A stretch of 64,000 bases of DNA from Candidatus Thorarchaeota archaeon (GCA_048884965.1 JBHLQH010000001.1:64001-128000); one strand, 5' to 3'. Positions 40,154 to 44,536 are shown, numbered from the stretch's first letter. Notes: generated from the sequence alone by a model not told the origin. Made by a program: numbers and translations.

Positions 40154-43100
40154 CTAGAGAGGGATGTCTATCCCTGCATTCTTCAACATTGCCACTGCAA
40201 AGTTCTTGACGCTCTCAAGAGGATCATCAAAGTTGAAATCAAATGCCAGATTGTATGTTTGCCCAATAAACACGATATCCGCATCGAGAGATAGGATTCG
40301 ACTATTCACATCACTGAAGTCAGCTGCAAAGCTTGCTTCTGTGATATTGAATACTCCTCCCAAACCCCAGTCGACAACGAACTGTGTTAGTGACGAGAAT
40401 CCTGAAATCACCTCTCTAGCTATGACCACAGCTCCTTCAGCTATTTTCAATGCAGCCCATGCAGCGACTCTTGCTGTCACAAGTGCGATAACACGTGGGT
40501 CTAGAGCTGGATTTGCTATTACAACTACCGCCTCTGCGATTTTCAGTGCTGTCTTTGCAATTTCAAGAACTGCCCAGGCTGCAGCACGCGCAATTTGTAA
40601 TGCTCCAATCGTCACATAGTGAGCAGTTATCTCAGCAGAACGCCAACCAACTTCATAGACCAGTCTGGTCCATTTCCACGTCTTCTCCCACCAAGGTGCA
40701 GAATTATACCATTTGTTCCACCATGCTATTTCAGAGTTGAGCGTGTTTATCCTAGATTGAATAGATCGTATCTGTGAATCGATCTTGTTTACTTCATTTT
40801 GGGCAGCCGTTACTGCATTTTGGGCGTCCTTCAAGCCAGCGACTATTGCGTCCTGTTCCTTCTGCACGATTGCTATCATGTTGGATATCTGGATGTCCCA
40901 GCTTTCCACATCATGTTGTGCTGCGACTAATGCGTTCTGGGCGTCATTTAGTCCAGATACAGCTGCGTCTGTTATATCTTTGATAAAATTCAGGATATTT
41001 TCACGCACATAGTCCAGCAGATCATTCTTCATGTAGGCTCTCAAATAGACCCCGTCTCCTGAGCCTTTGAGAAGCTCGTCCAGACTAGGACCAGATACTT
41101 CTAGAGAGGCCTCAAACAAATCAAAGATTTTTGCCATTGTCAACAGGTAGAATCCATCTTCATCGATGTTGATATCCACCAAACCTTTCATTAGTCCTCC
41201 GAGGATGCTTATCGCTCCGGATACGACAAGCTGAAGATTGCTTGATGACCGTCGTAGATCAAGGTCAAACATTGCGCCTTTCTTTGTGTCACTCGCGTGA
41301 GTCAGCTTGATCAATTCAAACCCATTAATTGAGATGTCAATTGGATCTATTGCAGCTCTGATGTAAATTCCATCATCAGGATCCAATAGCGCTTCTGCAA
41401 AGATATTGAAATCGAAGATATCCAGTAGAGCTCTCATATGAAATCCTGCATTGTAGTTTACTCCTCCAACTATAGTATCCATTAGAGCATAGTGGAACTT
41501 TACATCACGCATTTCTATTCCGTCCAAGAATGCGAAGAACTGTTCAGGAATAATATCTGCAACAACGAAGAGGAGTGACCTGACAACTGTGCCAATATTC
41601 AGCTGATTGAACTCAATACTTAGCAACTGAAGTGTTGGTCCCTTCAGACTGATAGCTCCACTTCCAGTGAAGGAGCCAATAGTCACATCTGCCATGACAC
41701 CAAACTCTGGCATGAAGGGCACGCTAACACCTATGTCCACTCCTAATCTGTTCACGGTTATTCCTTTAACACCCATAGGATCTTTCCATTCACCAGTCGT
41801 GTACGCTGATAGCTTTAGCGAAGGATCTGGATCGACCTCTAGGATGAAAGCACCCTTCAGAGGGAGATATTCTTCACCAATCCGCAAATCCATGTCCGAT
41901 TCCAATCGAATACCAAAACCTTCAGATGCATATCTGATTCCGAAGAGGAATCCTTTGAGTATGATGACATCCTCTAGGTTGATATTCAACTTAGAACTTG
42001 CTAGGAATTCAAGCGAGAACGGACTTGTCGCTATAATTCCTGCGACACTCAGAGAATCCACATTCAATAGTTTCGTAACGAGGTCATCTTGGAAAGTCGC
42101 TTGGAAGTTGATTCCTTTCTTGATCTCTCCAGCTACTTTCACTTTTCTGAGTAGATCCATTGGCACCTTTAAATCTGCATTCGACAGAACTAATGCTTCA
42201 TTGGTCAACGAATCCGAAACTGGATTAGGAATCGCAGGTACTTTCAGCAAACTGAGAGCCTTTTTGATTCCCATAGGTGTCGCCATAAGAGGTGCCCACT
42301 TTCCTGTTTCAGGATCTTTGTGAATTACGAATTCAATCACGGTTGCTTCGGTCGTAATCGTTGCTGAGAATAAAGGAATGCCAGGAGCGATTCTTAATTC
42401 GACATTTGTTATCTTCAATGCTCCAATCTCTGACAGACCCGGAGGTACTGGAAGGCTGAGAGCTTGAAGGCAATCTTCTGCAAAAGTCCCTAGATTAACT
42501 GATATTGGGGCACTGGCCGTCAACTCAAAATCACCGGGGAATTTACATCCGATGATTAAGGGTAGGTTTCCTACATTGAAAGTTCCGTGCATGTCAACTG
42601 AGAAGACTCTTACGTTTTCATCACTCAGTTTTTGAGTGATATTGATTTTAACATCGCTGATTGAGAAATTGAATGTGGGTATGGCAAAACCACTATCCGA
42701 TTCAATGTCAATGGCAAATTCTTTGGTCCTGAGATTATATGAAAGGGACAAATCGACTTCAAGATCTGATGGCGGAGAAAAGTTACTTGAGAGGTCTTGG
42801 AGAGATGCTATTCCAAGGTCGCTCACGATTGATTGGAAATCCAAAGTGGTCTTCGCTTCGAGTATTTGATCAGTATCTTTAGGAGCGATCGAGTAATCAA
42901 TCACTGTTGAGCCTACTTTTATTTTCCCATCAAGCATAATTACTGTTTGAGGACTTGGGACAGTGGTTGTTTTGGGATCACGCTTAATCGTAATCTCTGG
43001 AGTTAGGAATATGTTTGTATTCTCCACAATCTCCCAGTCACCATCAGTAGTTGCTTTCAATGTGTACGACCCTGTACTAGGCACATATTCCAAGTTTATG

Positions 43101-44536
43101 TCGAAAAGGGGAATCTCTATTGGACTTACAGAATTAATGAAATCCGATACCTCTGGTAGACCAATACTTGAGATCAGTGATGTGAGTCCCACATCCTGAA
43201 TATCAACAGTGAGTGTTGGATTTGGAAATGTTGCAGATACTTCAGCAGAAATCATTCCCATCTTTAGTTTTCCAAGCATAGTTGTTACAATGGGTTGGGA
43301 TGGGTTCTCCTCATCGATTGGTTCTCTTGTTAAGGTAATTACTGGAGTAAGTGAGATTGCAGGTTGCTCCAATAGCATCCAATCATCACTTGTCGTTATC
43401 TTGAGAGCAAATGCTTGTGTGTTGGGTGTATAATAGAAGTAAATATCTAACTTAGGTGCCTCTCCAGTTGGTGATAGACTATCGAAGAAATCGGAAACAT
43501 CAGTAAGACCCAAATCTGATAAAATGGATGCGAAGTCAAGGTTGTGCAACTCGATAGAGAACTCAGGACTTGGAAAAGTTGCTGAGATTTCAACATTCAT
43601 ATCCGCTATCCGGATCACGCCAGACAAACTTGTACTCAACACTGGTTGCTTACCCGGAGCAGGAATATCCCTCTTGACCTTGATGTTTGGTCTAAGAAAG
43701 ATGTTTGGGGATTCTAATATCTTCCACTCGCCTGAAGTGGAGGTTTCCAATGTGAAAACTTTCGTGCCTGCATTATAGTCAATATGGATGTCGAAAGCTG
43801 GTGTTTCAACTGGAGTGAAGGACTTTAGGAAATCAGCCACCTCCACAAGACCAATATCTGAGAATAAAGTAGTGAAATCTAAATTCTTGATATCGATACT
43901 CAAATCCGGATCCGGAAATGATACAGAAATTGCCATAGATACTGGTCCTACATGAAGTGTTCCTGACAGATTACCTGAATATCCTAATTCTTTGAGTGTC
44001 CCAGTAGAAGGTTCACTCGTTTCGAGATCTACTCCTGACCTACTGACGTTGATGCTTACATCGTGAATCGAAATATCCAATGTATCTCCTGCTATCACCC
44101 ATGGTTCAGATGCTTTTACATCCAACTTCATTTCCTTTTTTGCAGAATTACATCTAAATGCAGTTTCAGAGAAGCGTATCATTGATCCACTTGCATCGGA
44201 TTTCAAAGCACTGAGAATCTGACCACCGAGTTCAACTGCCAAGTCTCCTCCATTAGAGATTCCGCATTGAAGTGTACAGACTTCAATAATTCCTTCATCA
44301 CTCATTTCAAAAGATAGATCCACTTGAATTCCTGAGATGCCTAGCAAATCAATTGTTCCGGCGATTCTCAGCGTATTGTTCTCAGCTGTTATTTTCGGAT
44401 TTTTCAGGGTTAGTTGAGCAGCGATATTTTCCAAGATGTGAATTACTGCGGGTTCTTGAATTTCAGATAGAACAAGAGTACCATCATTGGTGTTTATGTT
44501 TTCACGGATTTGGGTTTCTAGTATTTCTAGACTCAT
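40154..44536 (-). CDS. 1460-aa uncharacterised protein: tandem ~115-aa beta-rich repeats, a beta-rich core and a C-terminal coiled-coil hairpin with a Trp-rich/hydrophobic tip
   Basis: Repeats start at about aa 190, 304, 420, 535 and 649. Heptad region contains DAQNA..AAQ twice, then WWNKWYNSAPWWEKTWKW and DPRV. GGAGGTG SD upstream; no obvious signal peptide. Confidence 0.85.
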   Translation of the reverse strand: MSLEILETQIRENINTNDGTLVLSEIQEPAVIHILENIAAQLTLKNPKITAENNTLRIAGTIDLLGISGIQVDLSFEMSDEGIIEVCTLQCGISNGGDLAVELGGQILSALKSDASGSMIRFSETAFRCNSAKKEMKLDVKASEPWVIAGDTLDISIHDVSINVSRSGVDLETSEPSTGTLKELGYSGNLSGTLHVGPVSMAISVSFPDPDLSIDIKNLDFTTLFSDIGLVEVADFLKSFTPVETPAFDIHIDYNAGTKVFTLETSTSGEWKILESPNIFLRPNIKVKRDIPAPGKQPVLSTSLSGVIRIADMNVEISATFPSPEFSIELHNLDFASILSDLGLTDVSDFFDSLSPTGEAPKLDIYFYYTPNTQAFALKITTSDDWMLLEQPAISLTPVITLTREPIDEENPSQPIVTTMLGKLKMGMISAEVSATFPNPTLTVDIQDVGLTSLISSIGLPEVSDFINSVSPIEIPLFDINLEYVPSTGSYTLKATTDGDWEIVENTNIFLTPEITIKRDPKTTTVPSPQTVIMLDGKIKVGSTVIDYSIAPKDTDQILEAKTTLDFQSIVSDLGIASLQDLSSNFSPPSDLEVDLSLSYNLRTKEFAIDIESDSGFAIPTFNFSISDVKINITQKLSDENVRVFSVDMHGTFNVGNLPLIIGCKFPGDFELTASAPISVNLGTFAEDCLQALSLPVPPGLSEIGALKITNVELRIAPGIPLFSATITTEATVIEFVIHKDPETGKWAPLMATPMGIKKALSLLKVPAIPNPVSDSLTNEALVLSNADLKVPMDLLRKVKVAGEIKKGINFQATFQDDLVTKLLNVDSLSVAGIIATSPFSLEFLASSKLNINLEDVIILKGFLFGIRYASEGFGIRLESDMDLRIGEEYLPLKGAFILEVDPDPSLKLSAYTTGEWKDPMGVKGITVNRLGVDIGVSVPFMPEFGVMADVTIGSFTGSGAISLKGPTLQLLSIEFNQLNIGTVVRSLLFVVADIIPEQFFAFLDGIEMRDVKFHYALMDTIVGGVNYNAGFHMRALLDIFDFNIFAEALLDPDDGIYIRAAIDPIDISINGFELIKLTHASDTKKGAMFDLDLRRSSSNLQLVVSGAISILGGLMKGLVDINIDEDGFYLLTMAKIFDLFEASLEVSGPSLDELLKGSGDGVYLRAYMKNDLLDYVRENILNFIKDITDAAVSGLNDAQNALVAAQHDVESWDIQISNMIAIVQKEQDAIVAGLKDAQNAVTAAQNEVNKIDSQIRSIQSRINTLNSEIAWWNKWYNSAPWWEKTWKWTRLVYEVGWRSAEITAHYVTIGALQIARAAAWAVLEIAKTALKIAEAVVVIANPALDPRVIALVTARVAAWAALKIAEGAVVIAREVISGFSSLTQFVVDWGLGGVFNITEASFAADFSDVNSRILSLDADIVFIGQTYNLAFDFNFDDPLESVKNFAVAMLKNAGIDIPL

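Follow-up and report, generated by a model that had tools for sequence, protein, structure and literature searches.

What does a large archaeal protein do that is predicted to be a long chain of amphipathic beta-sheets and belongs to a family with no Pfam model and no paper that we could find? The question is raised by a locus in a 64,000-nucleotide stretch of DNA from Candidatus Thorarchaeota archaeon (GCA_048884965.1 JBHLQH010000001.1:64001-128000), here called the window. A reading of the window made from the sequence only had proposed that positions 42380-43970, which correspond to aa ~190-719 of the protein P0001, encode a repeating-beta-groove (RBG) architecture like that of the bridge-like lipid transfer proteins VPS13 and AsmA. 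It appears to us that P0001 is the large subunit encoded by a conserved module of two genes and that it works like the amphipathic beta-sheet lipid handlers, a tentative reading to which we give a probability of about 0.4. P0001 would resemble the AsmA/RBG grooves, the Lpt bridge, and the ApoB belt by analogy, or be very remotely related to them at best, and it is not a demonstrable member of these groups.

P0001 is strongly acidic, with 191 D+E versus 104 K+R, and its gene is present in one copy in the host genome. A hydropathy scan found neither a signal peptide nor a transmembrane segment. Within the first 60 aa, no 19-residue stretch exceeds a hydropathy of 0.96, and thus no N-terminal anchor was found. 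The maximum of the whole protein (1.65) lies in an Ala-rich helix and is still not a transmembrane segment. The features of the module are as follows.

40154..44536, minus strand: large gene P0001, 1460 aa, acidic product without signal peptide or transmembrane segment
43979..44536, minus strand: N-terminal helices (family-conserved) and first beta unit of 4 strands, 2 helices, and 3 strands, aa 1-186
43643..43978, minus strand: repeat R1, aa 187-298, 3 strands, 2 short helices, 4 strands; 162 bits with a repeat profile
43289..43642, minus strand: repeat R2, aa 299-416; 155 bits
42947..43288, minus strand: repeat R3, aa 417-530; 154 bits
42611..42946, minus strand: repeat R4, aa 531-642, diverged yet significant; 31.6 bits, E 7e-12
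42269..42610, minus strand: unit R5, aa 643-756, topology as in R1-R4, sequence likeness not significant; 0.1 bits
41027..42268, minus strand: linker and family-wide meander core, aa 757-1170, ~22 long strands interrupted by one helical insert (aa 981-1005); predicted local distance difference test (pLDDT) ~85-93
40724..41026, minus strand: outgoing stalk helix, aa 1171-1271; one unbroken helix of ~16 nm at aa 1171-1278 in the model
40637..40723, minus strand: aromatic/basic hairpin tip with 8 Trp, aa 1272-1300
40367..40636, minus strand: Ala-rich return helices with a break at NPALDPR, aa 1301-1390; ~1281-1337 is the predicted partner interface
40154..40366, minus strand: three strands and a terminal helix after the stalk, family-conserved, aa 1391-1460, and the stop codon
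44551..45273, minus strand: partner gene P0016, 240 aa, charged coiled coil with an EKDPR motif, 14 nt upstream of the large gene

How is P0001 built? The structure was predicted in two AlphaFold2 models that were based on our own alignments of relatives. Model A2 covers aa 1-1180 (pLDDT 80.4, predicted template modelling score (pTM) 0.51) and model A1 covers aa 760-1460 (pLDDT 83.1, pTM 0.60). In model A2, every repeat unit has 7 strands per ~115 aa, of which 3 precede and 4 follow a pair of short helices. The short helical loops to which the sequence-only reading had drawn attention are recovered as the two short helices that follow strand 3 of each unit. The ~5-stranded unit of RBG proteins that it had cited is not what the model displays. 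The N-terminal units are joined by Pro-rich loops, and pLDDT falls to 55-61 at the R1/R2 and R3/R4 boundaries.

The number of repeats was assessed with a hidden Markov model (HMM) built from R1-R3 of P0001 and three orthologs, with shuffled sequence as the null. R1-R3 scored 154-162 bits, and R4 (aa 534-619) scored 31.6 bits (E 7e-12). R5 (aa 647-668) scored 0.1 bits, which is inside the shuffled range (max 6.2). Pairwise identity followed the same order: 39-45% among R1-R3, 19-25% for R4, and 15-21% for R5. Four of the five ~115-aa repeats originally proposed are therefore significant at the level of sequence. R5 has the same topology in the model and is a fifth repeat by predicted topology only, because its score is no better than those of shuffles.

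The strands are amphipathic to a degree that composition does not account for. The mean hydropathy gap between the two faces of a strand was 3.24 compared to 1.73 +/- 0.16 when residues were shuffled within strands, placing the alternation about nine standard deviations past the shuffles (63 strands). One hydrophobic and one polar face were found in 50 of the 63 strands, and only 2 had both faces hydrophobic. The alternating-hydrophobic strands described from the sequence are thus borne out, as is their continuation to aa ~1170, a stretch in which the model predicts about 63 strands.

Beyond the repeats, the model shows a core meander at aa ~842-1170 made of ~22 strands of 8-14 residues (pLDDT ~90) with a single helical insert. 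The core is followed by a stalk, a single 108-residue helix spanning aa 1171-1278 (~16 nm), which leads into a turn with 8 Trp. After a return helix (aa 1285-1337), the chain kinks at NPALDPR and continues as a third helix at aa 1347-1390. Three further strands and a terminal helix complete the protein, and these C-terminal strands may rejoin the beta body. The aromatic tip on a helical stalk is a real feature of the model and is conserved across the family. The hairpin turn has a median aromatic fraction of 0.18 in 77 relatives versus a background of 0.066, and Lys/Arg usually flank it in the same relatives. Of 92 relatives, 61 retain the DPR motif of the kink. Exposed aromatic and basic residues at a tip are a common way of sitting at a membrane interface, as is established for the Trp-rich loops of cholesterol-dependent cytolysins and for viral membrane-proximal regions; for P0001, such a seat is a possibility. 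In sum, P0001 is soluble, acidic, and elongated, and is confidently predicted to combine 7-strand modules in variable number with a ~22-strand core and a ~16-nm hairpin.

A search for proteins that accompany P0001 leads to P0016, whose gene is on the same strand and ends 14 nt upstream of the large gene. P0016 is a coiled coil with 63 K+R and 50 D+E among its 240 residues. An ortholog with 54% identity is found at the matching position in the Asgard locus L001. Asgard orthologs of P0016 are 54-65% identical, and all Asgard loci seen have one immediately upstream of the large gene. A further 15 orthologs are encoded on contigs shared with orthologs of the large protein or by consecutive locus tags. 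Bacterial homologs carrying a W..WY turn and an (E/D)DPR motif are located immediately upstream of the large gene in locus L003 and two genes upstream in L016, and the bacterial and archaeal partners match with a pairwise E of 7e-7. Locus L018 has a possible P0016 equivalent downstream of the large gene. No P0016 homolog was found beside the gene in three loci, those of Lyngbya, of a LamG fusion (L015), and of the signal-peptide type (together L014, L015, and L017). Judged by gene order and conservation, P0016 is a conserved partner that some bacterial loci have as well. In BLASTP, no significant similarity between partner and stalk was detected, and the W..WY and DPR elements that they share are a likeness at the motif level only.

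Does P0016 bind P0001? A complex prediction of the stalk with P0016 gave an interaction prediction score from aligned errors (ipSAE) of 0.69, compared to 0.02 for the best of three controls. Among solved complexes, 58 of 80 attain a score of 0.69, as do 2 of 110 mismatched pairs, a rough benchmark since we supplied our own alignments. The complex runs concurred in at least 90% of contacts, and pLDDT of P0016 was at least 80. The interface on the large protein comprised fragment residues 192-248, which correspond to aa ~1281-1337 if the numbering is taken as within the fragment, or the second half of the Trp-rich turn together with the Ala-rich return helix. On P0016, the predicted interface comprised residues 33-51 and 98-196 and included the DPR motif. 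These predictions support the binding of P0016 to the stalk of the large protein.

In two bacterial loci, another gene adjoins the large gene at its start or runs into it. The one in L016 (L016:3216-3878) codes for a Cys-rich protein of 220 aa, and the one in L018 (L018:3638-4996) for a protein of 452 aa whose H-x-[ED]-x-D-H motif is metallo-beta-lactamase-like. The two adjoining genes may be extra components of the module in some lineages.

How would such a module work? One possibility is that the one-sided hydrophobic beta surface of P0001 binds lipid or another hydrophobic surface, and that the tip, with its Trp/Tyr and Lys/Arg residues, docks the assembly at a membrane interface. P0016, which is predicted to wrap the tip-proximal return helix, would then shield or complete this hydrophobic helix. 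That the assembly forms a lipid transfer bridge between two membranes is a sub-case that we consider unlikely. The host archaeon is not known to have a second membrane that would need a bridge.

The same hairpin and partner may be read in another way, in which P0001 is a membrane-damaging effector or toxin of a conflict system. Either its amphipathic hairpins or the Trp-tipped helical hairpin would insert into a target membrane, and the partner would be a chaperone or an immunity-like cap that holds the protein in an inactive state, which is consistent with its predicted position over the hydrophobic helix next to the tip. The spread of the family is very patchy, including bacteria, archaea, and one protist transcriptome, as is the case for mobile conflict genes. 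The number of N-terminal repeats varies, signal peptides or LamG domains are present in some relatives, and the core can be aligned topologically with membrane beta-barrels. However, PADLOC and PHROGs searches with P0001 returned nothing beyond coiled-coil noise, and none of the six loci examined has secretion-system, immunity, or toxin-domain neighbors. P0001 is also strongly acidic and contains neither an enzymatic domain nor one known to form pores, and its barrel matches are at a root-mean-square deviation (rmsd) of 15-21 A. An effector role is therefore rather doubtful in our estimate.

Which known structures resemble P0001? Carrying out an AlphaFold prediction followed by a fold search had been suggested together with the RBG proposal, and the outcome is mixed: the searches lead to long amphipathic sheets that handle lipid, namely ApoB100, LptD, and predicted models of YhdP, TamB, and AsmA, but to no solved RBG chain in the top 50. 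When the model of aa 1-1180 was searched against the PDB with Foldseek, the top match was ApoB100 (E 9.6e-7, prob 0.99, 1535 columns, template modelling (TM) score 0.13). LptDE was also among the matches (prob 0.60). The shells of teneurin, Rhs, and Tc proteins matched with E 1e-5 to 1e-3, prob 0.06-0.20, and TM ~0.05. In a shape search of the ESM-Atlas with the C-terminal model, 4 of the 7 nearest sets that bear a name contained clusters of YhdP, TamB, and AsmA/DUF748 (TM 0.24-0.30, with rmsd 6-8 A for alignments of 250-300 residues). Scores similar to those of the AsmA-like models were reached in the ESM-Atlas by a TonB-receptor barrel and by a phage tail tip. In VIA-align, the core aligned topologically with membrane beta-barrels at rmsd 15-21 A. 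Fold searches with the model of aa 760-1460 were swamped by coiled-coil matches, and a profile search of PDB sequences returned coiled-coil proteins only.

The modular build of P0001 also suits a structural or adhesive rod in which discrete 3+4-strand beta-sandwich beads and a barrel-like core form a fibre, spacer, or adhesin that oligomerises through the coiled coil and has no role with lipid. Three strands, a crossover, and four strands are a classic sandwich topology, and the Pro-rich loops between R1 and R2 and between R3 and R4, whose pLDDT is low (55-61), would separate beads. Relatives differ in repeat number, some are fusions with up to 10 LamG domains, and signal peptides occur in one subfamily. 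Phage tail and fibre proteins are among the weak matches to viral structures in BFVD. However, these BFVD matches, which were tail and fibre proteins only, had prob <= 0.38, and Foldseek gave continuous-sheet proteins over >1000 columns. No immunoglobulin-like or other sandwich-repeat proteins were present in any fold-search list. Furthermore, a pTM of 0.51 across 1180 residues is high for a string of independent beads and argues for fixed packing between the predicted units. The archaeal protein and most relatives also have no signal peptide. A rod of this kind appears unlikely to us.

How closely, then, does P0001 resemble each of the known lipid-handling systems? With the AsmA/RBG proteins (TamB, YhdP, VPS13, ATG2, BLTP1-3) it shares the build of a long rod with repeated groups of amphipathic antiparallel strands, helix-containing inserts, and a length set by the number of units. 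However, P0001 has no sequence or profile similarity to them, no N-terminal transmembrane anchor, and no chorein motif. Its units have 7 strands (3 + helices + 4) in place of 5 and a crossover loop, and the 16-nm coiled-coil hairpin and the dedicated small partner of its family are not found in RBG proteins. Likewise, the beta-belt of ApoB100 and P0001 are both very long, one-sided amphipathic antiparallel sheets with amphipathic helices, but the match has TM 0.13, rmsd 31 A, and ~10% identity, and is limited to the beta-belt part of ApoB100. Pfam detected no vitellogenin-N/LLTP (large lipid transfer protein) domain in P0001, which in contrast to ApoB100 and vitellogenin has a prokaryotic host and no signal peptide. 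The match to LptD, with its beta-jellyroll and 26-strand barrel, and to other large outer-membrane barrels has rmsd 15-27 A, so the shape of P0001 is not a closed barrel. Unlike LptD, P0001 is acidic, soluble, and without a signal peptide. Archaea have, to our knowledge, no outer membrane and no beta-barrel assembly machinery (BAM). The YD shells of Rhs, teneurin, and TcB-TcC proteins resemble P0001 in their long spiralling antiparallel hairpins, but no RHS or YD repeat family was detected in P0001 or its relatives.

Profile searches were aimed at homology itself. Pfam (E <= 1) and NCBIfam found nothing in P0001 beyond coiled-coil noise at aa ~1183-1274. Eleven full-length relatives had no Pfam match to Chorein, VPS13, ATG2, Apt1, or FSA. 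When the beta regions of 47 relatives were each compared with Pfam at E <= 10, no family recurred, and AsmA, TamB, YhdP, Chorein, and DUF6603 were not found. The family profile aligned to E. coli TamB by hhalign gave a probability of 0.3%, an insensitive comparison with a single-sequence template; a TamB profile was not usable because the homolog collection gave only sequences of >=88% identity.

Protein-language-model look-alikes of P0001 are unnamed bacterial clusters. In the nearest named cluster, 24% of the members carry DUF6603 (PF20248). This domain was considered and rejected: its language-model score of 0.82-0.84 is under the meaningful level of 0.9, and HMMER found no match to it in P0001, the relatives, or the genome (E <= 10). 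A literature search found no paper mentioning DUF6603.

An RBG-like architecture of P0001 is thus plausible but unproven on the predicted models, and membership in the RBG/AsmA superfamily is unsupported by the profile comparisons. A hydrophobic groove along the whole rod may exist, with the one-sided amphipathic strands and the continuous-sheet proteins among the fold matches as indirect pointers to it.

Several observations weigh against P0001 being a lipid handler. Solved chains of VPS13, ATG2, TamB, and YhdP were absent from the top 50 of the Foldseek-PDB search and of two VIA-align searches with the aa 1-1180 model, although the core domain dominates these lists, so that the fold is not excluded by them. 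Every structural match had a low TM or a high rmsd. Amphipathic strands are equally compatible with beta-sandwiches and barrels. The hydrophobic return helix may, according to the predicted complex, simply be the partner interface and not be membrane-active. Certain relatives carry one to ten LamG domains, which are a pointer to surface or adhesion roles. The compartment is ambiguous: most relatives have no signal peptide or anchor, and one subfamily has signal peptides.

What is the extent of the family? An exhaustive phmmer search identified 466 clusters at E <= 1e-3, of which 254 remain when the limit is set to 1e-10 and 81 when it is set to 1e-30. Members share a ~680-aa C-terminal module (aa ~776-1460 of P0001) that consists of the core, the stalk hairpin with its aromatic/basic tip, the DPR kink, and the terminal strands. 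Members differ in the length of the N-terminal beta region: aa ~100-570 (R1-R3 and part of R4) have no counterpart in close ~1000-aa Asgard relatives, and other members are 2000-5000 aa long. Most members begin with a common short helical N-terminus and have no signal peptide. The named members come from Saccharophagus degradans 2-40, Flammeovirgaceae, Lyngbya, Spirulina, metagenome-assembled genomes of Thor- and Sif-archaea, and the transcriptome of Artemidia motanka, and they are annotated as hypothetical or mis-named 'chromosome segregation ATPase-like'. Going by these sequences and names, the family is undescribed, patchy, and mostly bacterial where named.

Three groups depart from the common pattern. 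A clade formed by P0054, P0059, P0068, P0070, P0075, and P0076 (955-1019 aa) has classical N-terminal signal peptides and mostly a net positive charge, unlike the acidic leaderless majority; the signal peptides suggest that the core may have an extracytoplasmic role, at least in certain bacteria. A subclade of ~3000 aa (P0122, P0135, P0145, and P0163) has about ten LamG/concanavalin-like domains ahead of the core, and in the LamG-fusion locus L015 the gene is beside a polyketide synthase/nonribosomal peptide synthetase cluster and a rhamnosidase. Two transcriptome isoforms from Artemidia motanka (Provora), P0162 and P0165, are 4962-5039 aa long and have the family core and stalk at the C-terminus (query 475-1185 aligned with residues 4254-4950). 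These copies are either a genuine eukaryotic member or contamination from prey or bacteria.

Is P0001 an ancestral Asgard protein? The designation of the protein as probably Asgard fits in that its closest homologs are named Thorarchaeota and Sifarchaeia. Searching 201 genomes of the window's phylum with a core profile gave true matches in only 3: the window's own genome, genome G140, and a fragment in genome G110. The remaining Asgard hits to the profile span coiled-coil positions 413-570 only. The two other genomes of the window's genus had no true core match in this search. A FastTree tree of 92 core sequences, which is midpoint-rooted and has taxon labels on a minority of its tips, unites the eight Asgard rows in a single clade (support 100) on a long stem inside a larger radiation with bacterial named members. 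Horizontal acquisition of the archaeal copy is likelier than Asgard ancestry, though not proven, because the gene is present in 3 of 201 genomes and its sequences form one nested clade.

The same evidence bears on the strongest form of the RBG proposal, in which P0001 is a true homolog of the VPS13/ATG2/BLTP-AsmA proteins, was inherited vertically in Asgard, and bears on how bridge-like lipid transfer arose in eukaryotes. AsmA-like predicted models at TM 0.24-0.30 among its nearest shapes and its modular amphipathic architecture are in keeping with this idea. However, even with the limit relaxed to E <= 10, Pfam matched no RBG/AsmA family in 47 relatives, the insensitive single-sequence comparison with E. 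coli TamB gave a probability of 0.3%, there is neither an N-terminal anchor nor a chorein motif, and the predicted units have 7 strands. The distribution in 3 of 201 Asgard genomes, absence from the two others of the same genus, and a clade nested among bacterial named members also argue against vertical inheritance. We consider such homology highly improbable.

A role in eukaryogenesis, which the sequence-only reading had raised, is likewise not borne out: the gene is rare in Asgard, its named relatives are bacterial, and R1-R3 are missing from the close ~1000-aa Asgard relatives. The outcome is mainly negative, in that P0001 is not evidence for ancestral Asgard VPS13-type bridges because its gene is rare in Asgard and looks acquired. 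A 2026 preprint on START-domain lipid transfer proteins of Asgard regards VPS13-type bridges as later eukaryotic inventions (10.1101/2025.05.16.653879), and therefore a confirmed Asgard case would be new. Our literature search found no paper describing RBG or bridge-like proteins in archaea.

The neighborhood of the module adds little to its function. A thiolase-fold gene (38137-39414, plus strand) and a DUF35/ChsH2-like gene (39417-40079, plus strand) are indeed convergent downstream of the large gene, as had been pointed out. The pair is also near the Asgard ortholog, with three other genes in between. As support for a lipid role these genes fall away, being outside the operon and absent from bacterial loci. 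The G+C content of window positions 38001-40000, which contain the pair, is 0.499 versus ~0.42-0.44 in the flanks, a sign that the pair may differ in codon bias or be of foreign origin. Upstream of the partner gene is P0017 (46022-46720, minus strand, 232 aa), for which no Pfam or PADLOC match was found. Near it are a small 4-transmembrane-like open reading frame (45541-45927, plus strand), an Rce1-like CAAX protease (46893-47711, plus strand), and a radical SAM gene (47831-48670, plus strand). Further out are a 321-aa all-TPR protein (36904-37869, plus strand) and a protein of 752 aa that contains a histidine-kinase-type ATPase domain (49991-52249, minus strand), and no link between these two genes and the large gene was seen. 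The DNA of the stretch occurs in sediment metagenome runs, and no RNA-seq run is listed with it.

What would the lipid-handling reading of P0001 mean for its family? Bridge-like and belt-like amphipathic beta-sheet proteins currently come from few superfamilies, namely AsmA/RBG, Lpt, and LLTP. P0001 and its relatives may represent a new prokaryotic class of rod-shaped lipid conduits or belts of tunable length, held at the membrane by a Trp-tipped 16-nm stalk, capped by a partner, and independent of or very remote from AsmA/VPS13. Such a class, which would be present in bacteria, a few Asgard, and possibly a predatory protist, is a speculative extension that we hold to be rather doubtful. If the family binds lipid, it would widen the picture of amphipathic beta-sheet lipid proteins by at least 466 unannotated clusters. 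What the finding chiefly offers is a large two-gene family that has no annotation, that comes with confident models, and whose predicted complex is amenable to testing, including in tractable organisms such as Saccharophagus degradans 2-40, which has an ortholog.

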